Of a stretch of DNA of 44,825 nucleotides, positions 6,119-44,602 are shown piece after piece; the stretch's first letter is position 1; each line of letters starts with the position of its first letter. Made by a program: the position numbers and the translations under genes. Location of the stretch: sequence record NC_073087.1. One strand, given 5' to 3'. The notes beneath the pieces are model-generated. The model searched no databases. It was given only the letters and a program-made list of their open reading frames with translations, and was not told the DNA's origin. This stretch comes from Escherichia phage Gluttony_ev152.

Positions 6119-8409
6119 TACTTCCTGTACCTGTACATGATGTCGCCTTCGGCGGCAAGTGGGAAGCCCTTCGCCCAAATAGGCAGGTCGCACATCAGCG
6201 CGCAAAGCTCCTCGGTCGTGTAGTCGTCAGTATCCGGCACTTCGGTGATCAATTCATCATGCACCGACAGGACGATTTTATACCCCGCAGCTTCAACGCC
6301 AGGCATGGACCACGCGAGAATATCGCGACACAACGCCTGTACGATGTTCTCCGTCAGTTTGCCGCCGTAGGTATACTGGAATCCCCACTGGCGCGTCGTC
6401 TGATTCTCGCCCTGATATTTAATGCGTGTGCTGGTGCGCTTCTTGCCGGTGTCTTCGTCAATCTCGGTAGTGACAGACAGCGCGATGCCGGGGTAGCTCA
6501 TGATGCGCCCCGACGGCAACTCAATTTTCAACCACCACCCCGCGGCGTCCGGGTCGTCGCGCTCCTCGTCGAAGGTTGGGTCGTGCTTCGCCTTCGTACG
6601 GACAATCTTGAGCGCTTTTCTACCGTCCGGGCGAACGTTCGCGCCAGCCCAGTATGCTTTGCCAGGATTGCGGATTGCACACAACACCGCGTCCTCAAGC
6701 TCGGCCCAAAAGGCTACCGTCTTCGGGTGCGCCTCACGCCACATACGTTTGATTGCGTCACAAGTAAGCCATACGTTTTTCGGCAGTATGTATGTTGGGC
6801 GCTCGTCTTTCTTACCTGGCTTCGGCGGGCGTTTCGCTTCGTTAATGCGGGCGTACTCATAGCCGCGTTTCGCCGCCGCCCAAATGTGATCCGGGAACGT
6901 GCCTTTCATCACGTCCGCCATAGTGTAAAGGTCGAGGCCCAGGTTTTTAGCGAACTGCAAGAACGCCGCGACGCCGCCACCATAGCCCAGTCCCAATTCG
7001 CACGCCTTACCAATCTGGCGTAAGTCCTTGCGGTTGGCTTTAATGTAATCCGGGTCGAGGCCGAACATCTTACCGGCAGTCTCGCAATAGATATCGCGAC
7101 CGGCCTTAAAGACCATTAACGCTGTTTTCTCGCCAGCGATCCAGGCAAGGCCGCGCCCTTCCACGTTGGAGTAGTCAGCTACGACAAACTTCTTGCCCTT
7201 TGCAGGGATGATGCACCCGCGAACGGTCGAGGCTGTCAGCTTCGATATGTCATACGCCCAGTGCGCTTTCCCACGTAACAGGGAGTTGATTCCGTTGGTG
7301 AGCATGTGCGACCGGACCCAAAAAGCGACGTCGCTCTCGCCTTCGCGGCGCTTAATCTTCCCTTCGTGGTCGTCGCTGTACTCGCCGCGTGCCAGGTTTT
7401 GAGGTTGAAAGCCTTTACCGGCCCAGCGTAGCGTGCGCTTTGCCCCACCATACTGAAGACAACCACGGCGGCGACCATCGGCGGACAGGCCATTGACAAG
7501 CGGATTGTATTTAGTAGATGCCGTTGATGACGCACCGAGGCGCATTTCGATAAGCGCTTTGCCCTCGTCCGGGAAGTCCGGGTCTTCCAGTAGGTCGTTT
7601 AGCGTGGATTTCTGCGCGTTGTGTATCGTGAATGCTGGCGCAATATCACGCAGGATTGGCAGGAAGTCATTGCCGGTCAGCTTACCGCCAAACCGCTCCC
7701 AGGCTTCTTCCTTCAATTCTTCCTTATGCGCCTGCACCGCTTTGATCGCGGCGTTCGCCAGGTCAACGTCAACGTAGAAGCCGCGGTCGTTAATCAACTG
7801 GTCGATGAGCAGGATTTCATCTTCCTTTGGTGAGTTGCCCCAGTCCGGTATGCGCCAGTAGACTTCACGCATGGCAACAATATCCAGCGCGGCATAGCGC
7901 AAGAATTTGGCCCATTCTTCGGGGTGCGTCTCGCGTGTGTAGCGGCGGATTTTGTAGGTCTTAGGGGTGGGCTTACAGAATCGTTTAATCAGCGCCTTGC
8001 CTGCCTTATCCTTCGCGTGCTCTGCGTCAACGCCCAGCACCTGGCACTGCATATCGAGGCTACCGGGCAGCGCGTGGCGAAAGGCCATAATCATGGTGTC
8101 TTCGATCTGGCTTACCGGCAGGTCAATACCCCACTTCTCGCGAATAACCAGGCGGTCAAACAGTAGGCCGTTAGCCATCACGATTTTTGCTTTCTTGCGG
8201 GATACATGGCGGAGCGCTTTGCGCAGTTCACGCGGCATTGTGGGGGATTCAGTGCAATCCCATGTCTGCACGCGGCCCTCGTCGATGGCGTATGTGCAAA
8301 TCATAATCTCGGTGGTTGGGTGCTCTGCGTAGGCGTACGCCCCAACTTTCTTCAGGTCCACCCCGCTAAATGTCTCGGTGTCGAGAAACAGGCGTTCGAA
8401 GTCTTTCAT
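6118..8409 (-). CDS. DNA polymerase, family A (PolI-like) with 3'-5' exonuclease domain
   Basis: 763-aa ORF; N-terminal LFLDTETF exo motif; C-terminal SVHDELITEV polymerase motif; largest minus-strand gene. Confidence 0.9.
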   Translation of the reverse strand: MKDFERLFLDTETFSGVDLKKVGAYAYAEHPTTEIMICTYAIDEGRVQTWDCTESPTMPRELRKALRHVSRKKAKIVMANGLLFDRLVIREKWGIDLPVSQIEDTMIMAFRHALPGSLDMQCQVLGVDAEHAKDKAGKALIKRFCKPTPKTYKIRRYTRETHPEEWAKFLRYAALDIVAMREVYWRIPDWGNSPKEDEILLIDQLINDRGFYVDVDLANAAIKAVQAHKEELKEEAWERFGGKLTGNDFLPILRDIAPAFTIHNAQKSTLNDLLEDPDFPDEGKALIEMRLGASSTASTKYNPLVNGLSADGRRRGCLQYGGAKRTLRWAGKGFQPQNLARGEYSDDHEGKIKRREGESDVAFWVRSHMLTNGINSLLRGKAHWAYDISKLTASTVRGCIIPAKGKKFVVADYSNVEGRGLAWIAGEKTALMVFKAGRDIYCETAGKMFGLDPDYIKANRKDLRQIGKACELGLGYGGGVAAFLQFAKNLGLDLYTMADVMKGTFPDHIWAAAKRGYEYARINEAKRPPKPGKKDERPTYILPKNVWLTCDAIKRMWREAHPKTVAFWAELEDAVLCAIRNPGKAYWAGANVRPDGRKALKIVRTKAKHDPTFDEERDDPDAAGWWLKIELPSGRIMSYPGIALSVTTEIDEDTGKKRTSTRIKYQGENQTTRQWGFQYTYGGKLTENIVQALCRDILAWSMPGVEAAGYKIVLSVHDELITEVPDTDDYTTEELCALMCDLPIWAKGFPLAAEGDIMYRYRK

Positions 8410-17261: not shown

Positions 17262-17312
17262 TTATGCAAGCGTGATATAGTCCCAGTGAGATAAACTTAC
17301 TGGGACTTTTTT

Positions 17313-17603
17313 ATGGATAAGCTAAACGAGTGGTTATTCGCCCTCGCATGTCTGGCTGGCGGCTTCGTAGGCGCACGCATTCACGGCGAGGCTACGAAGG
17401 GGCCATTAAACTTCGTTTTATATATCGTGGTAGGCTTTCTGTGTGCCATATTTGGTGCGCCAGCTATTGCCGAGTGGGCTGGCTTATCTGGCGAGCGCAC
17501 TGTCGCCGGTTTGGGCTTCGTAACTGCAATCTTCTGGATGCCAATCGCCGACCGGATCAGGGAGACTATTGCGTCGTTCCGACTTCCGGGGGGTGCAAAA
17601 TGA
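17313..17603 (+). CDS. putative holin (multi-TM membrane protein)
   Basis: 96 aa with about 3 hydrophobic helices, immediately upstream of the endolysin. Confidence 0.5.
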   Translation: MDKLNEWLFALACLAGGFVGARIHGEATKGPLNFVLYIVVGFLCAIFGAPAIAEWAGLSGERTVAGLGFVTAIFWMPIADRIRETIASFRLPGGAK

Positions 17604-17845
17604 TTATCTCCGTCCTGTTGTTTGTTATCATAGGGGCTTCGTCCCTGTTTAACGTGTATGCGCCGTCCGTACAGGATGGCATTTTAGGCCGGGTGCTGTA
17701 TCTGTTAACGGCAATGGTCTGTATTATCGGATTGTTGCAAACAGGAGACGTATCTGACACCACCTGGACCGCGTTAATCTGGCTGTTTGCATTGCGCACG
17801 CTGCGTAATGCTGTTTTGAATGGGGTAAAACATGCGATTCAGTGA
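17600..17845 (+). CDS. putative holin/antiholin-like membrane protein
   Basis: In-frame ATG at 17600 (ATGA overlap with upstream gene) within track ORF 17330..17845; 81 aa with about 3 hydrophobic helices; overlaps endolysin start. Confidence 0.45.
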   Translation: MIISVLLFVIIGASSLFNVYAPSVQDGILGRVLYLLTAMVCIIGLLQTGDVSDTTWTALIWLFALRTLRNAVLNGVKHAIQ

Positions 17846-18323
17846 CAACGGTCTACGATTTACGGCAGCATGGGAGACGTTTAGCCCGGTGCCGTATTTC
17901 GCGACTAAGAAAGAGCAGGCCCGCGGCCTGTACACCTGGGGTTATGGTCACACTGGCACTAACCCGCCTCGAAGCATTACCCGCGAGGAAGCGCTGGAAC
18001 TGCTCAAGCGCGATGTGGCGTATGCGGAGGATTGGGTGAACAAATACGCACATCCGAGCATTAACCAGGCGCAATTCGACGCGCTGGTGGATCTGGTAAT
18101 CAACGCCGGTCCGGGTCCGATCGTACCGGATGACGTCTCGAACGACTTTGATGATGCGGTGCGACTGGGAGACTGGGAGAAGGTCCGTGCTATTCTGCCG
18201 CAGTTCCGCAAGCAAGGCGGGTCGGTGCTCTTAGGTCTGGTCCGTCGCGCAATTGGCAGACAGGCGTTGTTTGATGGTAAGCAGTGGGACGTTGCCGAGC
18301 GAATCGGGCGTAACGCAGCATAA
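17832..18323 (+). CDS. endolysin, phage lysozyme (GH24-like)
   Basis: AAWETFSPVPYF ... GLYTWGYGHTG matches the E-x8-D/T ... GYGHT core of T4/lambda-type lysozymes; no SAR-type hydrophobic N-terminus. Confidence 0.8.
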   Translation: MRFSDNGLRFTAAWETFSPVPYFATKKEQARGLYTWGYGHTGTNPPRSITREEALELLKRDVAYAEDWVNKYAHPSINQAQFDALVDLVINAGPGPIVPDDVSNDFDDAVRLGDWEKVRAILPQFRKQGGSVLLGLVRRAIGRQALFDGKQWDVAERIGRNAA

Positions 18324-18339: not shown

Positions 18340-18750
18340 ATGTTAAAAAGCATTCTTGATCATAACGCTGACGCGCTCGCCGCGCTGGCTAAAACCGAAG
18401 ACCCTGGCGCACGCGCTATCATCGCGGACACTATCAGCCACGCCGGGGTCTTCGATGCGAAGCTGCCTAGCGTGCCGGAAAGTAAGCCGGTGGCAAGTGC
18501 GACCATAACCATCACCCCAGTGTCAGCCGCAGTCGGTGCGAAGGCCGCCGCGTCTGTTGCCGTCCTGCCATCCGACGCAACTAACAAGGCGGGGAAGTGG
18601 GTGTCCGCAAACCCGGAATGCGCGGCAATCAATCAGGCTACCGGCGAAATCACAGCAAAATCGGAGGGTGGTGTCCACATCTTTTGGGTGGCATCCGATG
18701 GTAGCGGGGCGATGGCGTCCGCCATCTTCACCGTAACGGAAGCAGGATAA
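18340..18750 (+). CDS. bacterial Ig-like (Big_2-type) domain protein
   Basis: C-terminal VLPSDATNKAGKWVSANPECAAINQATGEITAKSEGGVHIFWVASDG resembles Big_2 fold signature; followed by intrinsic terminator. Confidence 0.55.
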   Translation: MLKSILDHNADALAALAKTEDPGARAIIADTISHAGVFDAKLPSVPESKPVASATITITPVSAAVGAKAAASVAVLPSDATNKAGKWVSANPECAAINQATGEITAKSEGGVHIFWVASDGSGAMASAIFTVTEAG

Positions 18751-18759: not shown

Positions 18760-18786
18760 AAGCCCGGTTAATTCCGGGCTTTTTAT
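18760..18786 (+). terminator. intrinsic terminator
   Basis: GCCCGGTTAATTCCGGGC hairpin followed by TTTTTAT after Ig-like gene. Confidence 0.65.
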
Positions 18787-18991: not shown

Positions 18992-20134
18992 ATGCACCCG
19001 CAAACTAAAATCACCGACGAGCAATTGATCGACGAGTTGCAATCCGGCACTACCGCGAAAGAGATTGCGAAGAAGTACGGAATTGCTCTTCGAAACGTCT
19101 ACATGCGCAAAGCCCGCCTATCGAAGAAAGGGATTGGTCACGGCAACGATGACGTAATCCGTAAGCGCGTTGCCGATGGCTTTGGGGTTAAGCGCGTATC
19201 GGCCCTGGTGCGCGGTAATGGCGAAGAGGTCATGTCGTGGGTCATCACTGAGCAGGACAAGGAGCGCCAACTCGAAGCTATGCGCGCTGTTGTCGAGGGT
19301 ATGAACAGCGAAATCACACCGGCAGCGCCAGTAAACGCCCCGCCAGTACCGATCCAGGCGCTAGACTTGCTCAACTTGTACACCGTGTCCGACTTCCACC
19401 TGGGCATGTTGGCCTGGGGCGAGGAGACTGGCGAGGATTGGGATATGGCGATTGCCGAAGACCTGTTCTACCGCTGGTTTGTCGAAGCCTTCGCACGCGC
19501 ACCGGACGCAGGCACTGCCGTAATTAATATCCTCGGTGATATGGCGCATTTTGATAGCCTTGATGCCGTCACACCGGCAAGTGGTCACGTACTGGACGCG
19601 GATACCCGCTACCAGAAGCTGGTCCGCTACATGATTCGCATGGTGCGCAACGTGGTGGAACTGGCGCTGCAAAAACACCACAAAGTCAAACTGCTAATCG
19701 TCCAGGGGAATCATGACGAGTCTGGCATGATTTGGCTGGCTGAAATGTTCAATACGCTGTACGAGAACGAGCCGCGCGTCGATGTGGATACATCCCCGGA
19801 CGTATACAAAATGGTGCAGCACGGCAAGACAACGCTGTTCTTCCACCACGGGCACAAAGCGCGATTCGATGTTATCGAGCAGGTTATGATCGCTAAATTC
19901 AGACAGGCGTTCGGGTCGAGCGAATACAGCTACGCGCACGTAGGCCATTTGCACCACCAGAAGATTGTTGAATCCCGCAACATGATTGTTGAACAGCACA
20001 GGACGCTCGCAGCGAAAGACGCCTACGCCAGTCGTGGTGGTTGGATGTCCGGTCGCAGCGCCAACGTCATTACCTACAGCGCCAACTACGGCGAAGTAGC
20101 GCGCTTAACCATTAGCCCGGAAATGTTGAAGTAA
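18992..20134 (+). CDS. HTH domain fused to calcineurin-like metallophosphoesterase
   Basis: N-terminal TAKEIAKKYGIALRNVYMRK HTH-like segment; phosphoesterase motifs SDFHLG, GDMAHFD, GNHDE, HHGH, GHLHH in canonical order. Confidence 0.7.
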   Translation: MHPQTKITDEQLIDELQSGTTAKEIAKKYGIALRNVYMRKARLSKKGIGHGNDDVIRKRVADGFGVKRVSALVRGNGEEVMSWVITEQDKERQLEAMRAVVEGMNSEITPAAPVNAPPVPIQALDLLNLYTVSDFHLGMLAWGEETGEDWDMAIAEDLFYRWFVEAFARAPDAGTAVINILGDMAHFDSLDAVTPASGHVLDADTRYQKLVRYMIRMVRNVVELALQKHHKVKLLIVQGNHDESGMIWLAEMFNTLYENEPRVDVDTSPDVYKMVQHGKTTLFFHHGHKARFDVIEQVMIAKFRQAFGSSEYSYAHVGHLHHQKIVESRNMIVEQHRTLAAKDAYASRGGWMSGRSANVITYSANYGEVARLTISPEMLK

Positions 20135-20146: not shown

Positions 20147-20181
20147 AGCCACCCAGCCTGCCGATTTGGTGGGCTTTTTTG
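20147..20181 (+). terminator. intrinsic terminator
   Basis: GCCACCCA...TTGGTGGGC hairpin followed by TTTTTT after phosphoesterase gene. Confidence 0.55.
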
Positions 20182-20264
20182 TGCCTGTTATAATCCACCT
20201 TAGATGGCAGGGCCGTCTCCTATGTTGCCGATGGTCGGCGCATATGCACAAAAGGGCTTATATC

Positions 20265-20816
20265 ATGGCAGAAATTAAAGTTAAGGGCCGACGCGCCAAA
20301 CTGGACGGACGAGTAGCAGTAACCCCGCGCCGCAAACCAGGCGAGCAAACCGAGCATACCAATCTCGGACCTGAAATCGAGTACGGAAAGCGCCGTAAAG
20401 GCGGCAAATGTGGACGCCCTACTGACTACCGATCCGTTTACTGCGACCAGCTTCGCCGCTATTTTGCCGACGCCGACGCCTGGCAGGTAAACTACTCCGA
20501 TAAAGGCGCTGCGCAAGTAATCCCCCGCAACAAAATGCCAACCTTCGGTCGATTTGCCGCGGAAATCGGCGTGGGCGTAGCTTGCCTGTATCGCTGGGCG
20601 CGCGCACATGAGGAGTTCGCCGAGGCTATGGCTGACGCTATGGAGCTACAGAAAACATTCCTGATGGAAGCTGGCGGCGTGACCATCGCGGCAGGCTTCG
20701 CTACCTTCCTGCTTAAAGCCAACCACGGCGTCCGGGACGATGTGCCGCTGGATGACGACGAAGATGATAACGGCGACGTCGTTGTGGAACCTACCGGCAA
20801 AGGCCAGGGTGATTAA
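20265..20816 (+). CDS. terminase small subunit
   Basis: Immediately upstream of and overlapping terminase large subunit (TAATG); GRPTDY segment and acidic C-terminus typical of TerS; start at internal ATG (M34 of track ORF), first ATG lies in terminator region. Confidence 0.6.
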   Translation: MAEIKVKGRRAKLDGRVAVTPRRKPGEQTEHTNLGPEIEYGKRRKGGKCGRPTDYRSVYCDQLRRYFADADAWQVNYSDKGAAQVIPRNKMPTFGRFAAEIGVGVACLYRWARAHEEFAEAMADAMELQKTFLMEAGGVTIAAGFATFLLKANHGVRDDVPLDDDEDDNGDVVVEPTGKGQGD

Positions 20817-22201
20817 TGCGTAACTATGCGGCAGAACATCGCGCCCTTGAACGAGCGATCGCAAAGCGAAACCGACCGCCGCGCCCGACACGCGTTGCGC
20901 AGGCCGTCCGCCTTTACCAGCCTGATTGCTTGCCGCACCAGGTTGAACTACTGCGCGACACGAAGACTAAAATACTCGGCCTGTGTTCCGGCTTCGGCGG
21001 TGGAAAGTCGTGGGTCGCTGCGCGTAAGGTCATCCAGCTTTTAACCCTGAACCCAGGTCATGACGGCATCGTTACAGAACCGACTATTCCGCTCCTGGTT
21101 AAAATCATGTATCCGGAACTGGAGAAGGCATTCGACGAGGCTGGATTCCGGTGGAAGTTCAATAAGCAGGACAAGATTTATAGCGTGCTGGTGAAAGGGA
21201 AATGGACCCGCGTTATCTGTGAATCAATGGAGAACTATACCCGCCTGATCGGGGTCAACGCCGCATGGATTGTCGCCGATGAATTCGACACTACTAAGCA
21301 AGACGTCGCGCTGGCGGCGTATCACAAATTGCTCGGTCGTCTGCGTGCGGGCTTTGTCCGCCAGTTCGTCATCGTGTCCACCCCGGAAGGCTACCGGGCG
21401 ATGTATCAGATTTTCGAAGTGGAGAAGGATAGCCAGAAACGTTTGATCCGGGCGAAGACTACCGATAATCACCACTTACCGCCAGACTTTATCGACACGC
21501 TGCGCAGTCAGTATCCCGCTAACCTGATCGATGCGTACCTGAACGGCCTGTTTGTAAACCTTACGTCGGGCGCGGTATACAAGATGTTCAACCGGGAGGA
21601 GAACGCAAGCACCGAAGAAGTGCAGCCCGACGACACGCTGATTATCGGTATGGACTTTAACGTCACGAAAATGGCGGCGGTCGTGTACGTCAGACGGCAG
21701 CGCATCACCGAAAACAAGGAGTTCCGCGACGAGATACACGCAGTGGATGAATTTGTGGACCTGTTTGACACCCCAGCTATGATTGAGGCGATCGAGGAGC
21801 GCTACCCGGAACATTGTGCCGCCGGTAGGGTCGTCGTTTACCCGGATAGCAGCGGCAAATCCCGCAAGACGGTCAACGCGTCGTCGTCCGATATCGCACA
21901 ACTGGAAGACGCGGGCTTCGAGGTGGAGTATGACAGCGTTAACCCGCCTGTGAAAGACCGACTGATCGCGATGAATACGATGATGTGCAACTCGAAGGGC
22001 GTGCGCCAGTATTTTGTCAACCTGGATAAATGCCCTACACTAGCGAAATGTCTGGAACAGCAGGTTTACGACCTGAAGAAAGGCGAGCCGGATAAAACCG
22101 CCGGGGTGGACCACATGAACGATGCCGCGGGTTATCCAATTGCGCACCTGTTCCCTGTGATTCGTCCAATCGCCGTTGTTCCTACCGTAGATTTCTACTA
22201 A
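20816..22201 (+). CDS. terminase large subunit
   Basis: 461 aa; Walker A-like GFGGGKS; ATPase plus C-terminal nuclease region; canonical position before portal. Confidence 0.85.
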   Translation: MRNYAAEHRALERAIAKRNRPPRPTRVAQAVRLYQPDCLPHQVELLRDTKTKILGLCSGFGGGKSWVAARKVIQLLTLNPGHDGIVTEPTIPLLVKIMYPELEKAFDEAGFRWKFNKQDKIYSVLVKGKWTRVICESMENYTRLIGVNAAWIVADEFDTTKQDVALAAYHKLLGRLRAGFVRQFVIVSTPEGYRAMYQIFEVEKDSQKRLIRAKTTDNHHLPPDFIDTLRSQYPANLIDAYLNGLFVNLTSGAVYKMFNREENASTEEVQPDDTLIIGMDFNVTKMAAVVYVRRQRITENKEFRDEIHAVDEFVDLFDTPAMIEAIEERYPEHCAAGRVVVYPDSSGKSRKTVNASSSDIAQLEDAGFEVEYDSVNPPVKDRLIAMNTMMCNSKGVRQYFVNLDKCPTLAKCLEQQVYDLKKGEPDKTAGVDHMNDAAGYPIAHLFPVIRPIAVVPTVDFY

Positions 22202-22212: not shown

Positions 22213-23733
22213 ATGACCGTTAACGTTGACAACCAGCACCCGCTCTATGCGCGCATCGCGCCAGAGTGGAAAATGATCCGTGACTGCGTAGCAGGGGAGC
22301 GCGCCGTGAAGGCGTGCGGGCCATTGTACCTGCCACACCCAGCCAGCGGCGACACTACCGACACGAAATCGCGGGCGCGGTATAAGGCGTACAAGCAACG
22401 CGCTGTATTCCTGAACGCCACCGCCCGCACACTTAACGCGCTGTTAGGCGTCGCCTTTGCAAAACCTGTAAGTCTGGACCTTTCCGGGGCGATGGCTGAC
22501 CTGATTGACGACGTAGACGGCAGCGGTATGCCATTGCCGCAACTTCTGCGCGGTGCTATGTCGGAAGTTCTGCAATCGGGACGCGCGGGCTTTATGGTGG
22601 ACTACGACCGCCAGGCTAACTTTGATGAACTGGGTAACGTAGTGCCACAGACAGCCGCCGAGATGGCGGCACACCGACCGCTTATCCGCCTGTATACGGC
22701 AGAGCAGATCATCAACTGGCGGCAGACACACGGCGTCGATACGCTAATTGTGCTGAAGGAAACGGACGAAATCAGCACCGAAGACCCGGACGATTTCGCA
22801 AACCACGAAGTAACAATCTGGACCGAGCTTCGCATGATTGACGGCAAGGCACACGCCCGCCGCTGGTTTTACAACGCGGACACGTCCGAAGTGAAGATGG
22901 ACTTGCCGCGAGGATTCACCAGAACCGATCTTGTGCCGTTGGTGGATGCTTCCGGTAATGCGCTTACGCAACTACCGTTTTGCTGGTGCGGTGCGGTGGA
23001 CAACAACGCAACGCCTGACGCCGCTCCGCTGGCGGATATCGCATCCATCAACATTAAGCACTACAACGCCGAAGCGGACGTCGCCGAGATCGCGCACATC
23101 GTGGGTCAGCCTACCCTGGTTGCGACGGGCTTGACTCAATCATGGGCTGACAAGAACCTGAAGGGAGGCATTGCCCTCGGTGCGACTAAGGGCGTTATCC
23201 TGGGCCAGAACATGGACGCTAAACTGATCCAGGCGGAGGAGCGCAACTTGTCGGTTGCACTGTGTGAGCGTCGCGAATTGCAAATGGCTAAACTAGGCGC
23301 AGCCCTGGTCGAGAAGGGGACCGCACCTAAGACGGCAACCGAGGCGGCCTACGATGCGCAGACTGATAACAGTATCCTGTCGCTTATCGCCGGTAACGTT
23401 GAGAAGGCTTTCAACCGTGCGCTGCAAATCGTGCAGCTATTCACGGGCGACACCGCCGACCAGCGCGTGACGCTGAACAAGTTCTACACTGAAATCACGG
23501 TTGATGCGCAGCTTATGACCGCGATGATGTCGGGTGTGCAGACTGGCACGGTCCGCCTAGCTGACTTCATCAAGTGGATGATGGCGCAGGGCGTCATCGA
23601 CGACTCGCAAACCGTCGAGCAGGTGGAAGACGAATTGCGAAATCAGAATCCATTGCCTCAAATGTCCCCGGATGCGGTAGAATCGACCGAAGAAGACCCG
23701 GACAAGGTAGCGGACAATGGCGAAGACAATTAA
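22213..23733 (+). CDS. portal protein
   Basis: 506 aa following terminase; acidic C-terminus; gene order. Confidence 0.8.
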   Translation: MTVNVDNQHPLYARIAPEWKMIRDCVAGERAVKACGPLYLPHPASGDTTDTKSRARYKAYKQRAVFLNATARTLNALLGVAFAKPVSLDLSGAMADLIDDVDGSGMPLPQLLRGAMSEVLQSGRAGFMVDYDRQANFDELGNVVPQTAAEMAAHRPLIRLYTAEQIINWRQTHGVDTLIVLKETDEISTEDPDDFANHEVTIWTELRMIDGKAHARRWFYNADTSEVKMDLPRGFTRTDLVPLVDASGNALTQLPFCWCGAVDNNATPDAAPLADIASINIKHYNAEADVAEIAHIVGQPTLVATGLTQSWADKNLKGGIALGATKGVILGQNMDAKLIQAEERNLSVALCERRELQMAKLGAALVEKGTAPKTATEAAYDAQTDNSILSLIAGNVEKAFNRALQIVQLFTGDTADQRVTLNKFYTEITVDAQLMTAMMSGVQTGTVRLADFIKWMMAQGVIDDSQTVEQVEDELRNQNPLPQMSPDAVESTEEDPDKVADNGEDN

Positions 23734-24820
23734 TCAAGATATGGCGGATCGAATGATTCGCCGTCACATCTTCACCCAGCGCCTGAGCAATGACCAGGCG
23801 CGAAGGGTGCTGGCTATGTGGGAGAAGTTCCGGCCCGCTTTACTGGGTAAGCTGACCGAGTTACTTGATGGTAAAAAGTCCATGAGCAACAAGGCACTTA
23901 CCACACTTTTAACGCAACTCGACAAGACCGTCAAAACGGAACTGCGCACCGAGTTTAAGGCGCTGGCTGAAAGCCTTCAGGAGTTCGCCGACACCGAGGC
24001 TGATTATCTCGCCGACACATTAACGGCAGCGATCCAGCCAGCGGTCGCCGTACCAGCGGTTGAGGTGGTGAGCGTAGTGACGGGCGCGCAGATTGCAGCG
24101 ACGGCAATGAAAAACCCGTTCCAGGGGAACACCATGATGCAATGGCCTGATTCACTTTCCGAGTGGACCAGGACGCAGATCGGCAATCAGGTGCGCGCCG
24201 GATTCATCCAGGGCAAGCCAACGATGGAAATTATTGCGGACGTGAGGCGCGCGCTAGGCGGTCGTAGTGCGCAAGCAATCTCAAGCGTTGTTAAGTCCGC
24301 GGTCAACCACTATGCGGCGACCGCCCGCGAATTAATGGTAAAAGCTAATGACGATATTCTCGAAGGTCGCCAATGGTTGGCCACATTGGACACGCACACT
24401 TCTCCCATGTGCCAGCTACGCGACCGCCTGTTCTATCCGGTTGATGTTACTCCCGCGACAAAAGGGAAGCGCGGCGGGAAAGTGGTGGCTGGATCACAAT
24501 ATGGCGCTGGTCCTGGCAAGCTGCATTATTGCTGCCGTTCTACGGAGACGTGGAAAGTCAAAGGCATGGAAGATTGGCCCAGTGGTAAGCGTCCGGCACT
24601 GAAGGCTGACGCAGGCAGATTGCTGAGTGAGCAGGTCGACGCGCAGACTGATTTCTTCTCATGGGTGCAGCGCCAGCCGCGCCATATCCTGGAAGAATTA
24701 TATGGAGTGCAACGCGCCGACCAGATTATGCGCGGCATGAAAGTGCCGAAGATGTTCACCGATTCTGGCGAACTGATGACTATTGCACAGCTTAAAAACC
24801 GGGGGTTATGGCGTGATTAA
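23717..24820 (+). CDS. head morphogenesis protein (SPP1 gp7 / Mu F-like)
   Basis: 367 aa directly after portal, overlapping it; typical position and size of minor capsid/head morphogenesis protein. Confidence 0.7.
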   Translation: MAKTINQDMADRMIRRHIFTQRLSNDQARRVLAMWEKFRPALLGKLTELLDGKKSMSNKALTTLLTQLDKTVKTELRTEFKALAESLQEFADTEADYLADTLTAAIQPAVAVPAVEVVSVVTGAQIAATAMKNPFQGNTMMQWPDSLSEWTRTQIGNQVRAGFIQGKPTMEIIADVRRALGGRSAQAISSVVKSAVNHYAATARELMVKANDDILEGRQWLATLDTHTSPMCQLRDRLFYPVDVTPATKGKRGGKVVAGSQYGAGPGKLHYCCRSTETWKVKGMEDWPSGKRPALKADAGRLLSEQVDAQTDFFSWVQRQPRHILEELYGVQRADQIMRGMKVPKMFTDSGELMTIAQLKNRGLWRD

Positions 24821-25142
24821 ATATGCAGCGATTGGACTGGTTATCGGTCTGGCGGTAGGATTCTGGCTAGGTGACTCCTATCGCGCTGGCGTAGTGGCGG
24901 AGGCGGCGCAAGAAGCGCAAGCCCAAGCCCAACGGCAGCAAACTAAAGTAATCGAGCGCTCCGTGCAGGCAGAACAAGCCCGCGACGTGGAATACCGGAC
25001 TATCACAAAAGAGGTTGTTAAATATGTTACGCGCCCTAACCGCCCTGATTGTAGTTTTGACGCTGAGCGCGTGCGGATCAAGCAGCGTGCCGTTGATGCC
25101 GCTAACGGAGTCGGCACTGCGACCGCCGTGCAAGTTCGATAA
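24783..25142 (+). CDS. i-spanin (Rz-like)
   Basis: N-terminal TM helix AAIGLVIGLAVGFWL followed by QA-rich coiled-coil; completely contains the o-spanin ORF in another frame. Alternative start GTG 24813 with GGGGG RBS. Confidence 0.6.
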   Translation: MHSLKTGGYGVIKYAAIGLVIGLAVGFWLGDSYRAGVVAEAAQEAQAQAQRQQTKVIERSVQAEQARDVEYRTITKEVVKYVTRPNRPDCSFDAERVRIKQRAVDAANGVGTATAVQVR

Positions 25143-25254
25143 CCCGTCTGCGGACCCCGACGAAGATTTGATGATTGACGTGAAAAATATGGAATGCGGG
25201 GCGAAGCTGAGGGCGCAGGTGTTGGAGTTGCAGCAAATAATTAAGGGGCCGTAA
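25015..25254 (+). CDS. o-spanin (Rz1-like outer-membrane lipoprotein)
   Basis: Signal peptide with lipobox LTLSAC, Pro-rich mature part; embedded in +1 frame of i-spanin gene; AGAGG RBS. Confidence 0.6.
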   Translation: MLNMLRALTALIVVLTLSACGSSSVPLMPLTESALRPPCKFDNPSADPDEDLMIDVKNMECGAKLRAQVLELQQIIKGP

Positions 25255-25266
25255 TGGCCCCTTTTC
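25243..25266 (+). terminator. intrinsic terminator
   Basis: GGGGCCGTAATGGCCCC plus TTTT overlapping o-spanin stop. Confidence 0.6.
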
Positions 25267-25268
25267 CG

Positions 25269-26033
25269 TTAGCGAGGAATGCCGCAAATCTCGTTGAGTG
25301 TTTTCACATCCAGCGCCACCGCCGTGGATTTTGGCTTGTCCGGGTAAGGGATGAATTGCTCAACTTCAGGCCATGCCTTGATCAGCTTCTTATCGGTATT
25401 GTGCATATCCAGCACGCCGGTAACAGTTAGTTTGAACGCGTCATACTTAGCTCGCAACTCGCGTCGGGCCTTGTCGTTACGGTCCAGGCGCTTGCAGAAA
25501 TCATGATCCGCCGGAAAATCAGCACGGCAGCGGGGCTTATAGATCGGCAGCGCTTTCCCATCCTCGTCCAATTCGCACACAGAAGCCAGCATAACTTCTT
25601 CGTACCCAGGCACAATATCGCCGAGATCGGGAGACAGCTTATTCATGTATTTATATTCCCAGTATCCGCGATGTACGCGGTATCGGAGACCGTCACCGCT
25701 CAAGGACAAGGTGCGAACATTTCCTCCTGCGTTGATTTCGAAAGTGGCGTCGTAAACTCGGTCGATACCTTTTGGGCGGTCGTGGTTATAGTAATACGTC
25801 GCCTTGTTGGTGTAGACGCTTACGCCGTACATCTGCGACTTGTCGTCGTGGATTAACTGTATATGCTCGCGTAGCGCGGCGAACGTGCGAATGCCTTTTG
25901 GCATACAGTCCATCGTAATTGCGTACGCCAGGTCGCGAGAGTCCATCATGATGGATTTGGCTTCGGTCGCGATTTCGTGGTCGCGCAGGATGTTAGCCAG
26001 AATCTGGTTTTTAATGTCTTTCGTCAGTCTCAT
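25269..26033 (-). CDS. hypothetical protein, reverse-oriented moron candidate
   Basis: 254-aa product from internal ATG with GAGGA RBS; own minus-strand promoter TTGCAA-N18-TATATT (26056-26085); lies between rightward spanin terminator and rightward scaffold gene. Confidence 0.55.
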   Translation of the reverse strand: MRLTKDIKNQILANILRDHEIATEAKSIMMDSRDLAYAITMDCMPKGIRTFAALREHIQLIHDDKSQMYGVSVYTNKATYYYNHDRPKGIDRVYDATFEINAGGNVRTLSLSGDGLRYRVHRGYWEYKYMNKLSPDLGDIVPGYEEVMLASVCELDEDGKALPIYKPRCRADFPADHDFCKRLDRNDKARRELRAKYDAFKLTVTGVLDMHNTDKKLIKAWPEVEQFIPYPDKPKSTAVALDVKTLNEICGIPR

Positions 26034-26055
26034 TTGTGTGTCCTCATGGTTGGTG

Positions 26056-26085
26056 TGCAACCAATATAGTGCAACCAATATGCGG
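26056..26085 (-). promoter_or_regulatory. promoter candidate for reverse-oriented ORF, TTGCAA-N18-TATATT
   Basis: Minus-strand hexamers with TTGGTTGCAC abutting -10 and repeated after it; drives ORF 25269..26033. Confidence 0.55.
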
Positions 26086-40899: not shown

Positions 40900-40924
40900 A
40901 TGGGGCCAGATGGCCCCATTTTCA
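40900..40924 (+). terminator. putative terminator between convergent genes
   Basis: GGGGCCAGATGGCCCC followed by ATTTTC; lies between J (+) and minus-strand ORF end. Confidence 0.45.
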
Positions 40925-41887
40925 ATACATATTCGGGATGACGAGTAGCGGTGTTGGTACTGCAATATTTTTACTTGGCATCTGGAATTGCTGCCGTGAG
41001 TAGTTGCCGATGACGCGGTTTTTAGCGACGCGCACATTATTACCCGCCATGCGTATGCCGTTCATGCGGACGTGGTTATAGCCACCGTTGTTCTGAATCA
41101 GTGCGCCGGTGTATGAAAGCTGGATCAGGCTGTTTCCAATATTCTGGTCGCCCGTTCCGATGTTAATAGTGCGGTCATATACGAACGGCTTGTTCACCGT
41201 CGAGAACGTAACCTGATTCTGGTTATTCGTCATGGTGATTCCGGCCCCCGGAGTGGGTGGTGTGTTGTTGAATATCACCAAATCCATGTCCACCGAAGCC
41301 GCCACATCGTCGATGCCTCCATAGGACGCGTTGCGGACGATAATACTGCCGCCATCGAAGCCTACTGATACGTTGCCATCATCCCATCGGGCGAACGGAA
41401 CACCGCCAACCGGCAAGGCCATACTACCGTTGACGCGCACGCGCTGTGCGTATCGGCAGGTCATTAGCTTAGACACGTTGGATATGGCGGTGAAGTCCGT
41501 CGAGTTAGCCACCAGTAAACCTGCGTTGCGCGAACCAACCGGCAGCACTTCCATTATGACGCCCGCCCATTGTGGTAAACCAGAGTACGCGCCATACGCA
41601 TCCTCCCCGCGCAGGGTGATACCACTATTACCGTTGCGAGTAACCGACGTAACGTAAAACGGGTCGGGAATTACCAGGGTCTGGTCAAACACCTCAATCA
41701 CTTCTACCGGGCGAGTGAGCGCGACGATGACCTGCGACCCATCCGTAAGCGGGGTGTTAATGGTTAGCGTCTTGTTGGACTGTGCCCGCTGGTTAAAGCT
41801 GGTGCAGTATGACGGCGCGCGGAGTCCCGCGGTTATCTCCATGCGCGGCCTTCCGTCGTTATAGTCGATAAGTATTCCAGCGCCCAT
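40922..41887 (-). CDS. hypothetical Asn/Gly/Thr-rich protein (beta-helix-like)
   Basis: Reverse-oriented; starts right after the lipoprotein gene stop (ATG 41887 with GGGAG RBS, alternative GTG 41896); repeated N/G/T-rich segments; no signal peptide. Confidence 0.5.
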   Translation of the reverse strand: MGAGILIDYNDGRPRMEITAGLRAPSYCTSFNQRAQSNKTLTINTPLTDGSQVIVALTRPVEVIEVFDQTLVIPDPFYVTSVTRNGNSGITLRGEDAYGAYSGLPQWAGVIMEVLPVGSRNAGLLVANSTDFTAISNVSKLMTCRYAQRVRVNGSMALPVGGVPFARWDDGNVSVGFDGGSIIVRNASYGGIDDVAASVDMDLVIFNNTPPTPGAGITMTNNQNQVTFSTVNKPFVYDRTINIGTGDQNIGNSLIQLSYTGALIQNNGGYNHVRMNGIRMAGNNVRVAKNRVIGNYSRQQFQMPSKNIAVPTPLLVIPNMY

Positions 41888-41889
41888 TA

Positions 41890-42111
41890 TTACCACTCCC
41901 GTGATTTAACTGATACTGTGCCTGAGAAATTGCCGTCGCTATCTGAAGACAGCCCAGTGAATCGCATGTCTACATCTCCTGCCGGTACTTTTTGCCCGTC
42001 AACGTAGCGCAACATGCAGCTACCGTAAGCAACCGTAACGCAATCGCCATTGTTGCGTTCTACGGCGCAACCGGACAAAAGAACCGCACAAATCATAATT
42101 AAAGTTTTCAT
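41890..42111 (-). CDS. small outer-membrane lipoprotein (Cor/Llp-like superinfection-exclusion candidate)
   Basis: 73 aa from internal ATG with AGGGGA RBS; signal peptide MKTLIMICAVLLSGC with lipobox LSGC; reverse-oriented between J and tail fiber genes. Confidence 0.55.
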   Translation of the reverse strand: MKTLIMICAVLLSGCAVERNNGDCVTVAYGSCMLRYVDGQKVPAGDVDMRFTGLSSDSDGNFSGTVSVKSREW

Positions 42112-42190: not shown

Positions 42191-44602
42191 ATGGCAGCGG
42201 GTACGCTATCCGTAACGAACAATAGCAAGGCGGTAGTAGGGGTCGGCACCACGTTTACCGCGTTTAAAGCTGGCGACTTCTTAACGTTGGTGGTAGGACA
42301 AGTCCCATACACCGTGGCAATCGCGTCCATTGAAAGCGCAACCGCGCTTACGCTGGTGCTGCCGTTCGACGGCCCAACGGCAACCGGCCTTGCGTGGGAC
42401 GGCGTTAAGCGCGATACCATGTCACTGGCAACGATGGGCGTTACCGTACAGGCACAGAAAGCGTTGCGATTGATGATCGCAGATGAAAACAACTGGCGCG
42501 CTATCTTCGGCGAAGAAGAAGAAATCTCGGTCACGCTACCGAACGGTCAAGTGGTGCAGGGTATGTCGTGGGGCTACCTGTCAAAACTGCTTAAAGACGT
42601 AGATCCTGTTGAATTGCAGGCTATCGCGGACCAGACCATCACGGCTAAAAACCAGGCGCAAGGATTCCGTAACGAGGCGGAAGGCTTCAAGAACACCGCG
42701 AATACCGCGAAAGATGCCGCAGTAGCTGCGAAGACAGCGGCGGAGACAGCTAAGTCGCAGGCCGTAACCGCTAAAGCGAAGACAGCGGCGGAGACAGCTA
42801 AGTCGCAGGCCGTAACCGCTAAAGACCAGGCCAAAGGATTTCGCGACGAGGCTGAAGGCTTCGCCAACAGCGCGGACGCGTCAAAGAAAGTGCCGTATGC
42901 TGGCGTAACATTACCGGCACCGACTGGAGTAAGGGATATGCTCAAGCGGTTGCGCGATTCGGTTAAGGGCGGCTTCTGGCGCGTCGATGATATTGCGCAG
43001 TTTCCATCTGGCGAGATGACCCCTTTCAGATACGGACCTGGCGTATGTGGCGGCGCGGGGGATACATTCTTTGCAATCAACGTTGACTGGCAAACCTCGC
43101 GCGTTAAAGTTTTCTCGGGAAACAACAACGCGATCAACGGTGCGTCGGGAAGTGTTAGCGCTATCGAACTGGCTAAGCTGGGGGCTAACGGGGACGTGGC
43201 GATCGGGGACGGCGGGACCGGTGCATCGAACGACCAGGGCGCGAGAAAAAACCTTCAGGCAATGCACGAGCGACAGGCATCGTTGGATACTGAAGATCTT
43301 AACGTCCTTCAGGGTGATAAGGCTGGGTTTTATTATCAGTCCCTGTCGGCTAACGCCACCCCCGAACGTAACTATCCTATTAACCAGGCGGGTTGTTTAC
43401 TGGTGCAAAGATCCGGTGCTAACGATCCGAAAAGCTGCATACAAACGTACACCTCATACCTTAACGGTCGGCGCTGGATTCGATGGCTGAGCAACGCGAC
43501 TACTGGCACTTGGTCCCAATGGTACGAATTATATAACGCAGGGTCGTCGCCGACTTTTTCTGGAGTAATTACTGGATCTGCGGTGCGCGCTTCCGTTGAC
43601 GGAAAGATCATAACTATTAAACCTGGCGTCAATGATGTAGTTATTCACAACTCGGCATCTAATAAATTTTTGCAATTAAAGGACGATGGCGGTCTTTCGT
43701 ATGACAACAAGCTGATCGCGTATAACGGCCTTGCCGCCAGTGGCACATTTGCTATGACCGTCCCTAGCATTAAAGTTACAACAGCCAATGGCGGATTTCG
43801 TATCGACGGAACAACGTCGACAAACAACCAGCCACTTCACGTAACAGGCTACAACTCCGCAGGCACGCGTCTTTGGTTTTTAGGGAAGGACACCGGGACG
43901 AACGCGCTATTCCTGAACGATGTTACATCGTCTAAGGTTGAGCTGATCACAGACGGCGTTGTGCTTGGTACAAAGAATTTTGCGGGCAAGGCATACGTCC
44001 AGGCCGCAAGTTTAGAGATCGACCGACCGAGCGGCAAGTATTTCAAAATGCAGAACGACGGCACCTCGTCGCACCCTGCAACCTTCAAATTATGGGGTAA
44101 CGGGTCTGAGAGGGCGTCGGTTATTGAGTGTGGTTTTGATAACGGCCCTGGGTGGGTGTTTTACGCGCAATATAACAGCAACGGCACGCGCCAGATGAAC
44201 GTTAACGGTACGGTAAACTGCACGACGGTAAACCAGTCGTCTGACCGCGAGTTGAAGGATAACATCAAGCCGATCGAGAACGCTCGCGCGGGCCTTGCTA
44301 AGATGGGCGGTTATACCTACACCCTGAAAAAAGACGGTATGCCGTACGCCGGGGTGATTGCACAGGAAGTAATGGACGTTGTGCCGGAAGCGGTGAGCAC
44401 GTTCGAAGACTACGAACACCTTGCGGGGCCAACGCAAGACGGCGAGGAACTGGTAGGGCGTCAGCGCTTCTTCCAGGTGGACTACGGCGCTATTGCGGCG
44501 TACGCGGTGCAAGTGTGTAAAGAACAGGAAGAGGAACTGGTGTCATTACGCAGCGAACTGGAGGAATTAAAAGCTGCCGTAGCGGCACTGACTAAAGCAT
44601 AA
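42191..44602 (+). CDS. tail fiber protein with C-terminal intramolecular chaperone (peptidase S74-like) domain
   Basis: 803 aa; C-terminus SDRELKDNIKPIENA ... GGYTYTLKKDG ... GVIAQEV ... QVDYGAIAAY ... coiled-coil matches the autoproteolytic chaperone domain of endosialidase and T5 L-shaped fiber type; internal 48-nt tandem duplication. Confidence 0.8.
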   Translation: MAAGTLSVTNNSKAVVGVGTTFTAFKAGDFLTLVVGQVPYTVAIASIESATALTLVLPFDGPTATGLAWDGVKRDTMSLATMGVTVQAQKALRLMIADENNWRAIFGEEEEISVTLPNGQVVQGMSWGYLSKLLKDVDPVELQAIADQTITAKNQAQGFRNEAEGFKNTANTAKDAAVAAKTAAETAKSQAVTAKAKTAAETAKSQAVTAKDQAKGFRDEAEGFANSADASKKVPYAGVTLPAPTGVRDMLKRLRDSVKGGFWRVDDIAQFPSGEMTPFRYGPGVCGGAGDTFFAINVDWQTSRVKVFSGNNNAINGASGSVSAIELAKLGANGDVAIGDGGTGASNDQGARKNLQAMHERQASLDTEDLNVLQGDKAGFYYQSLSANATPERNYPINQAGCLLVQRSGANDPKSCIQTYTSYLNGRRWIRWLSNATTGTWSQWYELYNAGSSPTFSGVITGSAVRASVDGKIITIKPGVNDVVIHNSASNKFLQLKDDGGLSYDNKLIAYNGLAASGTFAMTVPSIKVTTANGGFRIDGTTSTNNQPLHVTGYNSAGTRLWFLGKDTGTNALFLNDVTSSKVELITDGVVLGTKNFAGKAYVQAASLEIDRPSGKYFKMQNDGTSSHPATFKLWGNGSERASVIECGFDNGPGWVFYAQYNSNGTRQMNVNGTVNCTTVNQSSDRELKDNIKPIENARAGLAKMGGYTYTLKKDGMPYAGVIAQEVMDVVPEAVSTFEDYEHLAGPTQDGEELVGRQRFFQVDYGAIAAYAVQVCKEQEEELVSLRSELEELKAAVAALTKA
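42730..42825 (+). repeat. 48-nt tandem duplication inside tail fiber gene
   Basis: GAAGACAGCGGCGGAGACAGCTAAGTCGCAGGCCGTAACCGCTAAAG occurs twice back to back, encoding KTAAETAKSQAVTAK twice. Confidence 0.7.

Follow-up and report, generated by a model that had tools for sequence, protein, structure and literature searches.

At what point of its genome does Escherichia phage Gluttony_ev152 encode the final step of host lysis, and in what arrangement? The question is raised by two overlapping plus-strand open reading frames between positions 24783 and 25254 of the window, that is, the whole stretch of 44,825 nucleotides analysed here (NC_073087.1). An initial annotation took these frames for an Rz-like inner membrane spanin (i-spanin) gene that completely contains the gene of an Rz1-like outer membrane lipoprotein (o-spanin). 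The analysis described below indicates that positions 24813-25254 very probably encode a two-component spanin of the 'Jersey' family and of the overlapped class, in the genome of a Dhillonvirus (HK578-like E. coli siphophage). At the nucleotide level the DNA is 100% identical to that of Escherichia phages jat and SM_A8; it matches 144 phage records, mostly of Escherichia and Dhillonvirus, and over the spanin stretch its identity to jat, SM_A8, and JLBYU60 is 99-100%. The pair is already known, being represented both in a published spanin catalogue (Kongari 2018, PMC6139136) and in RefSeq.

The two genes and their products

The i-spanin gene occupies positions 24813..25142 of the plus strand and encodes 109 amino acids from a GTG start that overlaps the stop of the upstream head morphogenesis gene by 8 nt. 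As read from the sequence, a Shine-Dalgarno motif, GGGGG (24801..24805, plus strand), lies 7 nt ahead of this GTG. The same start and length are found in YP_002720087.1 of phage SSL-2009a (RefSeq) and in HK578_005, and the identical GGGGG motif has been marked for HK578 (Kongari 2018, PMC6139136, Table S1). The start at 24783 given by the initial annotation was rejected, since the TTG there is simply the earliest in that frame and falls within the upstream gene. The N-terminal transmembrane domain (TMD) that had been proposed is borne out by a hydrophobic helix at approximately residues 3-20 (24819-24872), with a maximum Kyte-Doolittle 15-residue mean of 2.33, and a Kyte-Doolittle scan of the whole protein revealed no second hydrophobic stretch. 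The periplasmic domain is predicted to be helical and contains a single cysteine, Cys80. A low-confidence single-sequence AF2 model (pLDDT 59), with helices at residues 3-72 and 84-97, may lend weak support to this helical content. The coiled coil also proposed for the protein is marginal, in that published tables place one at residues 29-56 of the SSL-2009a i-spanin but none in the near-identical HK578 protein (Kongari 2018, PMC6139136).

The o-spanin gene (25024..25254, plus strand) begins with ATG, is read in frame +1 with respect to the i-spanin gene, and encodes a precursor of 76 amino acids with a predicted mature form of 60. Its Shine-Dalgarno motif, AAGAGG (25009-25014), is located within the stretch encoding a conserved i-spanin motif, ITKEVVKY. 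The N-terminus, MLRALTALIVVLTLSAC followed by GSSS, has a predicted signal peptide (25024-25071) with Arg3 and a hydrophobic core, and the lipobox LSAC (25063-25074), found in the context LTLSAC as initially noted, with the lipobox cysteine, Cys17, at 25072-25074. The residue at position +2 is glycine, so the protein is without an Asp inner membrane retention signal. The periplasmic cysteines are Cys36 and Cys58, and two constant o-spanin cysteines have been noted for the Jersey family (Kongari 2018, PMC6139136). Proline content is modest (7 of the 60 mature residues), and the earlier description of this protein as Pro-rich fits only weakly.

Family searches place both proteins among predicted spanins. 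Specifically, a PHROG search matched the i-spanin to phrog_2536 (E 3.5e-36) and the o-spanin to phrog_5672 (E 2.5e-26) and phrog_1267 (E 2.4e-11), all three named 'Rz-like spanin'; RefSeq applies the same label to both spanin genes of SSL-2009a (NC_012223.2), and the o-spanin counterpart YP_008550147.1 is likewise annotated as an Rz-like spanin. The annotated i-spanin of phage K1ind1 also matches phrog_2536 (E 1.8e-56), and BLASTP aligns the two i-spanins at 41% identity over 81 aa and the two o-spanins at 48% identity over 46 aa, with i-spanin Cys80 and o-spanin Cys36 and Cys58 aligned to cysteines of K1ind1. No Pfam match was found for either protein at E up to 0.1, nor did either match an NCBIfam/Pfam spanin family, where only sub-threshold signal-peptide look-alikes appeared; K1ind1 and the IMG/VR relatives are likewise without a Pfam match. 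With the Pfam Rz and Rz1 models unmatched, membership in the lambda Rz/Rz1 sequence families was rejected, and the earlier term 'Rz-like' holds in the sense of the PHROG families and of a functional analogue, not of a member of the lambda sequence family.

Viewed against published descriptions of two-component spanins (Summer 2007; Kongari 2018, PMC6139136), the locus combines an i-spanin with an N-terminal TMD, an o-spanin with a lipobox, overlap of the two genes on one strand, and periplasmic cysteines. The Jersey family is composed of Jerseyvirus, Kagunavirus K1G/K1ind, and Dhillonvirus members, with a short second subfamily, 'EP23 to SO-1', and its i- and o-spanin families, of the overlapped class, include HK578, JL1, SSL-2009a, EK99P-1, and EP23 (Kongari 2018, PMC6139136). 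Taken together, PHROG matches, topology signals, the conservation of both frames detailed below, and the published catalogue uphold the initial assignment of the two products as i-spanin and o-spanin.

Genomic placement and transcription signals

Directly upstream of the pair lies, as had been stated, a head morphogenesis gene (23717..24820, plus strand; SPP1 gp7 / Mu F-like; phrog_241, E 6e-117), an annotation shared by its counterparts in SSL-2009a, JLBYU60, and rolling. The lysis cassette (17313..18323) is indeed remote, with the spanin pair 6.5 kb downstream of it. The cassette comprises, on the plus strand, a holin (17313..17603), a second holin (17600..17845) that shares an ATGA start/stop overlap with the first, and a T4-lysozyme-type endolysin without a SAR or signal sequence (17832..18323); its matches are phrog_2359 (E 1.3e-31), phrog_2508 (E 2e-26), phrog_7 (E 1.5e-34), and PF00959 (E 1.4e-19).

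This synteny is conserved. The pair is found directly 3' of the head morphogenesis gene in SSL-2009a, JLBYU60, and rolling, and in K1ind1 (Kagunavirus) and SETP7 (Jerseyvirus) the spanins lie in the head module, one or two small open reading frames past the head morphogenesis gene and before the scaffold/major capsid genes. The initial annotation had implied an unusual placement; in Dhillonvirus, Kagunavirus, and Jerseyvirus alike, however, the pair normally sits in the head module, and this position has already been published for related phages. It is conceivable, although we regard it as unlikely, that the placement is itself functional, the pair being kept in the head module so that spanin dosage or timing is tied to head assembly and not to the holin clock.

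At the 3' end of the pair, a G+C-rich hairpin followed by a T-run (25243..25263) lies between the spanin genes and a convergent minus-strand gene (25269..26078); its 5' arm is formed by the last o-spanin codons, the stop codon falls in the loop, and a 61-nt stretch around it folds at -21.2 kcal/mol. The hairpin is retained in 16 of 16 loci, including one compensatory change from AGGGGCC/GGCCCCT to GGGGGCC/GGCCCCC, and is also present in phage rolling. It is probably a bidirectional intrinsic terminator that ends a unit of packaging, head, and spanin genes. In Dhillonvirus the spanin pair would form the 3' end of the packaging and head morphogenesis unit, with coding sequence doubling as an arm of the predicted terminator.

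Two further hairpins lie between the cassette and the packaging genes. The first, a terminator-like hairpin on the plus strand with an 8-bp stem and a T-run (18760..18781), is situated past the lysis cassette and its Ig-domain open reading frame; none of 200 shuffled sequences folds equally well (z -3.4), and just past it lies a promoter-like site, TTGACT-18-CATACT (18790-18819, plus strand). Both elements are conserved in rolling, at positions 2251-2274 and 2282-2311 of locus L027. The second terminator-like plus-strand hairpin (20155-20175), conserved in rolling at 3844-3864 of the same locus, has an unexceptional fold of its own (z -1.2) and belongs to an element at 20155..20194 in which it precedes an extended -10 sequence, TGTTATAAT (20186-20194, plus strand), 72 nt ahead of the small-terminase ATG at 20266. 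This is the sole exact extended -10 in the window, where 0.83 matches are expected by chance, so that it is suggestive by position alone. A candidate transcription unit would accordingly run from a promoter near 20186 through the genes for TerS, TerL, portal, head morphogenesis, i-spanin, and o-spanin to the hairpin at 25243-25263. For evidence of this kind, sites were judged one by one, solely by where they lie and whether they are conserved; consensus scans for promoter- and terminator-like sites returned no overall excess over shuffles.

Do these signals separate the spanins from the holins and endolysin in transcription, as the initial annotation had asserted? It is possible, if somewhat doubtful, that one long rightward late transcript carries both sets of genes, which would then be apart physically but within the same transcription unit. 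Every gene from about 12.9 kb to 25254 is on the plus strand, the site counts and the unremarkable thermodynamics of the 20155-20175 hairpin are as such a transcript would have them, and read-through of terminators by antitermination is frequent in phages. Against this stand three hairpin and T-run sites (17279-17307, 18760-18781, and 20155-20175) that fall exactly in intergenic gaps and are all retained in a relative that is about 85% identical, the promoter-like elements that directly follow two of them, and the DNA-repair exonuclease gene in between. Separate transcription of the spanins and the holin/endolysin genes is a plausible reading of these sequence signals; the physical split in lysis functions is observed, and the boundaries of two units fit the conserved hairpins and promoter-like sites.

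Proposed role in lysis

A mechanism for the pair can be proposed by analogy, taken as a whole from work on lambda Rz/Rz1 and T4 PseT.3/PseT.2. Anchored in the inner membrane by its N-terminal TMD, the 109-aa i-spanin would extend a largely helical domain into the periplasm. The 76-aa o-spanin precursor would acquire its lipid at Cys17, undergo cleavage by signal peptidase II, and then, in keeping with the glycine at +2, be sent on to the outer membrane. Binding between the periplasmic domains would produce a complex that bridges the periplasm by passing through the meshes of the peptidoglycan, probably with homotypic disulfides formed via i-spanin Cys80 and via o-spanin Cys36 and Cys58. Release of the cytoplasmic T4-lysozyme-type endolysin by the two holins would lead to murein degradation, and the spanin complexes freed in this way may then fuse the inner and outer membranes as the final lysis step. 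Spanins are kept inactive by intact murein; co-regulation with the holins is therefore unnecessary, and an unlinked gene position is tolerated.

A search of the literature returned no experiments on any Jersey-family or Dhillonvirus spanin, and function is consequently assigned on the basis of homology to predicted spanins and of topology signals. Essentially all experimental spanin work concerns lambda Rz/Rz1, with the addition of tests of T4 PseT.2/PseT.3 in the catalogue itself (Kongari 2018, PMC6139136). Given that spanin function in the family has been predicted from sequence, that the curated Pfam/NCBIfam spanin models are unmatched, and that the pair appears to be transcribed with packaging and head genes and not with the holin, the two products could in principle be real envelope proteins that act in virion morphogenesis, DNA delivery, or superinfection exclusion and resemble spanins in outline. 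We consider such a role very unlikely. A type II inner membrane protein and an outer membrane lipoprotein with periplasmic cysteines, encoded by overlapping genes, are conserved from Dhillonvirus to Guernseyvirinae; the phage has a canonical holin/endolysin set and a Gram-negative host, yet no other spanin candidate; and unlinked T4 spanin genes complement lambda, which provides a precedent for distance from the cassette (Kongari 2018, PMC6139136).

Other candidates were sought throughout the window. Scanned for lipoboxes in six frames, the full 44.8 kb yielded only three. Besides the o-spanin, these are a frame at 7306..7431 inside a large minus-strand gene, judged spurious, and a credible minus-strand lipoprotein frame at 42111..41890, considered as a unimolecular spanin of the T1 gp11 type and rejected. 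The 73-aa product of the latter carries the lipobox LSGC, yet its C-terminus is polar and without a TMD; the product gave a match to phrog_4281 and a weak one to the Cor signal region. Among the open reading frames adjoining the endolysin gene, no TMD/lipobox pair was found; the frame at 18340..18750 was rejected as a Big_2 Ig-domain protein without TMD or lipobox.

Beyond correct annotation, the significance of the spanin assignment is small. In many Dhillonvirus GenBank records one or both spanin genes are designated 'hypothetical', or the o-spanin gene is omitted, and the features to record are the overlapped architecture and the GTG start at 24813. For the engineering of therapy candidates, the predicted outer membrane lysis function lies outside the lysis cassette, at the end of a head morphogenesis operon, where the o-spanin gene overlaps a predicted terminator and deletions can therefore affect lysis.

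Overlap, conservation, and comparison with known systems

The i-spanin gene stops at 25142 and the o-spanin gene at 25254; the architecture is therefore overlapped, as in P2 LysB/LysC, and not embedded, as in lambda Rz/Rz1. A dual-coding stretch of 119 nt (25024..25142, plus strand) is defined by the coordinates of both frames, and 112 nt of the o-spanin gene extend beyond the i-spanin stop. HK578 is classed as 'ovl' with a 119-bp overlap (Kongari 2018, PMC6139136, Table S4), and across Dhillonvirus loci the overlap ranges from 98 to 119 nt, with the o-spanin gene running past the i-spanin stop in all 16 and in K1ind1.

Both frames are under purifying selection. Outside the overlap, 58 of 95 variant alleles in the i-spanin gene are synonymous (25% expected), as are 30 of 49 (61%) in the o-spanin gene (21% expected), and in the portion of the latter covered by no other gene third-position changes are enriched (22/40). 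Variants within the overlap comprise 17 that are nonsynonymous for the i-spanin and synonymous for the o-spanin, 13 of the reverse type, and 12 that are nonsynonymous in both; none is silent for both proteins. Each of the 16 Dhillonvirus loci, at nucleotide identities as low as 80%, retains an open o-spanin frame with its lipobox, and the lipobox cysteine, Cys36, and Cys58 are invariant in all of them, as i-spanin Cys80 is across loci. Open frames in every locus, the synonymous excess, and the occurrence of only three lipobox candidates indicate that the pair is more than chance.

Two readings can be given practically no credence. That the lipoprotein gene is wholly nested within the i-spanin gene, as the words 'completely contains' had it, finds some encouragement in an o-spanin start that lies out of frame within the i-spanin gene and in the 'Rz-like' PHROG names, but it is ruled out by the two stops and contradicted by every Dhillonvirus locus, by the overlapped class published for HK578 and SSL-2009a (Kongari 2018, PMC6139136), and by the unmatched Pfam Rz/Rz1 models. 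That the frame at 25024..25254 is open by accident, covering part of a real gene and continuing past it, might be suspected from its absence in many GenBank records (jat and rolling, for example) and from phrog_5672, which covers only residues 32-76 and shows truncated calls to be common, but the conservation and synonymous excess reported above reject it at the level of sequence analysis, and the frame has its own Shine-Dalgarno motif and a homologue in K1ind1.

As a separate observation, an embedded o-spanin seems to be present in two IMG/VR loci (L025 and L026) that encode remote relatives of the i-spanin. Were this so, one family would cross the boundary between embedded and overlapped classes, a suggestion that we hold to be improbable, though not negligibly so; no family has been seen to cross it (Kongari 2018, PMC6139136).

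Among known systems, the overlapped pair of Gluttony_ev152 is closest to the published Jersey family. Its products are near-identical to the listed HK578 and SSL-2009a proteins, the HK578 i-spanin differing by a few residues; lengths of 109 and 76 aa, Shine-Dalgarno motif, start, overlapped class, and the 119-bp overlap are identical; and phrog_2536 is shared with K1ind1, as are the cysteine pattern and head-module position. Nothing substantial distinguishes the pair from this family, and Gluttony_ev152 represents one more isolate.

The overlapped prototype, P2 LysB/LysC, has the same gene layout: the o-spanin start lies within the i-spanin gene, in a different frame, and the o-spanin stop lies past that of the i-spanin. 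P2 lysB/lysC follow the holin and endolysin genes inside the lysis cassette, whereas the pair in Gluttony_ev152 is 6.5 kb from its cassette. The P2 proteins also constitute a sequence family separate from Jersey (Kongari 2018, PMC6139136).

With lambda Rz/Rz1 the pair shares a predicted topology, a type II inner membrane protein and an outer membrane lipoprotein, and presumably the disruption of the outer membrane by membrane fusion once the murein is degraded. It differs in being overlapped where lambda is embedded, in its lack of Pfam Rz/Rz1 matches, and in an o-spanin with a C-terminal helix, predicted in the family description, and two periplasmic cysteines. Lambda Rz1 is shorter, richer in proline, and has a single periplasmic cysteine, and the Rz/Rz1 genes close the SRRzRz1 cassette.

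Distance from the holin and endolysin genes is likewise found elsewhere. T7 18.5/18.7 are located between the two terminase genes, and spanins among packaging genes thus have precedent. The spanin genes of T4, PseT.3/PseT.2, are similarly distant from those for holin and endolysin, to which they are unlinked while complementing lambda (Kongari 2018, PMC6139136). T4 belongs to the separated class and T7 to the embedded class, and the sequence families of both differ from that of the pair described here. Lastly, the genome announcement of Schulenberg, a Guernseyvirinae-like E. coli siphophage of another genus, reports spanins separate from holin and endolysin (PMC6763661), the same separation as in Gluttony_ev152, with the architecture correctly described.

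An overlapped pair of probable spanin genes

Two overlapping ORFs can be read on the plus strand within 24783-25254, a region that the initial annotation described as an embedded spanin pair in which the i-spanin gene completely contains the o-spanin gene. Although the ORF pair is real, and its assignment to the spanins very probable, the architecture is overlapped rather than embedded: the i-spanin gene stops at 25142 and the o-spanin gene at 25254, resulting in a 119-nt overlap, with the o-spanin gene running 112 nt beyond the i-spanin stop. The TTG at 24783, the mechanical first start of the first open frame, lies inside the upstream gene (TAA stop 24818-24820) and 30 nt too far upstream to be favoured as the i-spanin start. 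The credible start is the GTG at 24813, 7 bases past GGGGG (24801-24805), and the same choice is made by RefSeq for SSL-2009a and by Kongari et al. for HK578 (PMC6139136). From this GTG the i-spanin comprises 109 aa, ending at 25142, and contains a single hydrophobic helix at residues about 3-20, in agreement with the N-terminal transmembrane segment originally claimed, with no second hydrophobic segment along the 109 aa and Cys80 as its sole Cys.

Lying in the +1 frame, the o-spanin gene runs from the ATG at 25024, 9 bases past AAGAGG (25009-25014), to 25254. The encoded protein, MLRALTALIVVLTLSAC followed by GSSS, displays a basic residue, a hydrophobic core, and the lipobox that had been proposed, read here as LSAC; its Cys is Cys17, and the +2 residue is Gly. 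Once mature, the protein measures 60 aa and includes 7 Pro and two more Cys, at 36 and 58.

Among distant relatives, the most conserved i-spanin motif is ITKEVVKY (residues 65-72). The o-spanin SD AAGAGG and the spacer leading to the o-spanin ATG (25009-25023) fall within the DNA encoding this motif; the overlapping gene's translation signal may account for part of the motif's conservation. Two IMG/VR contigs (L025:2698-3324 and L026:2812-3336) encode longer i-spanin-like proteins that have the ITKEVVKY core in common with the window i-spanin and match phrog_2536 (E 2e-9 and 5e-13, respectively), their best match being phrog_4952. By a regular-expression lipobox scan, a lipobox ORF appears to lie wholly within each of these genes, an embedded arrangement; Kongari et al. 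(2018, PMC6139136) report no family mixing embedded with overlapped or separated members.

Conservation and family membership

The pair was compared with 15 IMG/VR Dhillonvirus loci, 80-97% identical to the window over the spanin genes. All 16 sequences keep the o-spanin frame open and retain, without exception, its lipobox Cys, Cys36, and Cys58; the overlap measures either 98 nt or 119 nt, depending on where the i-spanin C-terminus falls (102 to 109 aa). In the 112 nt belonging to the o-spanin only, synonymous changes in the o-spanin frame account for 30 of 49 variant alleles, where random change would give 21%, and in the i-spanin-only part such changes account for 58 of 95 (25% expected); within the overlap, no change synonymous in both frames was found among the 16 sequences. 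Together these patterns indicate that both are real genes under purifying selection.

Over 24700-25300 the window shares 100% identity with two Escherichia phages, jat and SM_A8, and 144 phage records match this stretch, mostly Escherichia phages of the genus Dhillonvirus. The i-spanin matches phrog_2536 (E 3.5e-36) and the o-spanin phrog_5672 (E 2.5e-26) and phrog_1267 (E 2.4e-11), all annotated 'Rz-like spanin', and in RefSeq NC_012223.2 (SSL-2009a) both genes are labelled Rz-like spanins at unchanged relative coordinates. A spanin function for the pair, as predicted in this family, is very probably right, and both the pair and its location are already known from the literature and RefSeq.

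A six-frame lipoprotein-signal scan of the entire window returned three candidates: the ORF at 25024, one inside a large minus-strand gene that was judged spurious, and one at 42111..41890. The last (minus strand; MKTLIMICAVLLSGC..., 73 aa) was ruled out as a u-spanin, having no C-terminal TMD, and no other spanin candidate was found in the window. Besides a match to phrog_4281, it shows weak similarity to the Cor superinfection-exclusion protein in that protein's signal region; it lies beside a membrane protein gene (40922..41896, phrog_1265) and a tail-fibre gene (42191..44602), and is probably a receptor-masking exclusion lipoprotein.

Genomic position and transcription signals

The pair is located in the head module, as initially reported, and lies 6.5 kb from the endolysin gene. 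The plus strand carries, in order, a holin (17313..17603), a second holin (17600..17845, ATGA start/stop overlap), a T4-lysozyme-type endolysin without SAR or signal sequence (17832..18323), a Big_2 Ig-domain ORF (18340..18750), a DNA-repair exonuclease (18992..20134), the small and large terminases (about 20266..20816 and 20816..22201), the portal (22213..23733), and the head-morphogenesis gene (23717..24820), directly 3' of which lies the spanin pair. Next on the pair's far side is a minus-strand gene (25269..26078) that converges on it from within the head module, and beyond this gene come scaffold and major capsid, again on the plus strand. The converging gene matches Pfam Nmad5 (E 1.5e-57), named 'nucleotide modification associated domain 5', and phrog_1965, of unknown function; in rolling it is set apart from the spanins by one additional gene, also on the minus strand and annotated 'DNA polymerase III beta subunit'. 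The 136-aa ORF directly past the endolysin holds a Big_2 Ig-like domain (E 8e-11), a type usually found on decoration proteins of the head or tail. A PHROG of their own (11068) is formed by the first 48 aa of this ORF, and rolling has only a 55-aa ORF there.

SSL-2009a and JLBYU60 share this gene order, as does rolling, a more divergent Dhillonvirus. In a Dhillonvirus paper from 2025, the holins appear as 0031 and 0032, the endolysin as 0033, and the spanin as 0040, and a genome announcement for the Guernseyvirinae-like E. coli siphophage Schulenberg (PMC6763661) likewise describes spanin genes set apart from holin and endolysin. Judged by gene order, the position is typical for the lineage, not unusual.

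A scan for hairpins with T-runs, scored by fold z, identified three in intergenic gaps: 17279-17307, just before the holin (12-bp stem, z -6.8); 18760-18781, past the holin-endolysin cassette (z -3.4); and 20155-20175 (z -1.2). The second is followed by promoter-like TTGACT-18-CATACT (18790-18819) and the third by TGNTATAAT (20186-20194), which has no other exact occurrence in the window and lies 72 nt ahead of the TerS ATG. A further hairpin (25243-25263), whose 5' arm comprises the last o-spanin codons and whose loop holds the stop codon, occurs in 16/16 loci with a compensatory A-T to G-C change. These signals support a candidate unit in which a promoter near 20186 would serve TerS, TerL, portal, head morphogenesis, i-spanin, and o-spanin as far as a terminator, separately from the holin-endolysin unit. 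Read-through on one long transcript covering holin-endolysin and spanins would accord with overall counts of hairpin and promoter-like sites no higher than in shuffles; however, the three intergenic hairpins and TTGACT-18-CATACT recur at equivalent places in rolling, and such read-through appears the less likely alternative.

Conserved in rolling (L027:1020-1049), the very stable hairpin at 17279-17307, with T6 after it, ends 5 nt ahead of the ATG of the first holin (17313). Its 3' arm contains the likely holin SD (GGGA), so it may act as both terminator and translational gate on the holin. An unlisted 26-codon plus-strand ORF (18851-18931; MARNDIWVLAIWSAAAFIGMVICELL) comes after the promoter-like site at 18790-18819, in the interval from the lysis cassette to the exonuclease gene. 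Its SD, GAGAGGA, is strong, and its product would be a very small peptide with a single TMD.

Proposed action and comparison with known spanins

By extension from findings on lambda and T4 that PMC6139136 summarises, the i-spanin would anchor in the inner membrane while the o-spanin, lipidated at Cys17, would reach the outer membrane; the two would bind each other across the periplasm, with disulfides locking homodimers. The murein mesh would restrain these complexes until holins release the endolysin, whereupon the freed complexes would fuse the inner and outer membranes. Since murein integrity would gate activity, spanins could accumulate from any late transcript, and an unlinked gene position would be tolerated. 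The T4 spanin genes are likewise not near t and e, yet complement lambda (Kongari et al., PMC6139136).

Neither protein matched a family in Pfam or NCBIfam, placing the pair, by sequence, outside the lambda Rz/Rz1 families, which are moreover embedded whereas the window pair is overlapped. In Kagunavirus K1ind1 and Jerseyvirus SETP7, a homologous pair lies in the head module ahead of scaffold/major capsid, with one or two small ORFs separating it from the head-morphogenesis gene that the window pair directly adjoins. The annotated K1ind1 i-spanin (also phrog_2536, 1.8e-56) is 41% identical to that of the window over 81 aa, and the annotated K1ind1 o-spanin 48% over 46 aa, Cys being aligned in both. 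Kongari et al. (2018, PMC6139136) assign HK578, JL1, SSL-2009a, EK99P-1, and EP23 to the 'Jersey' i- and o-spanin families, of the 'Overlapped' class; in their description, the short subfamily consists of a pair of helices connected through a linker with one strand predicted, and the o-spanins have two constant Cys. For HK578, the supplementary tables of that study list an SD, a MIKYAAIG... start, protein sizes (109 and 76 aa), and a 119 bp overlap that are identical to those of the window pair.
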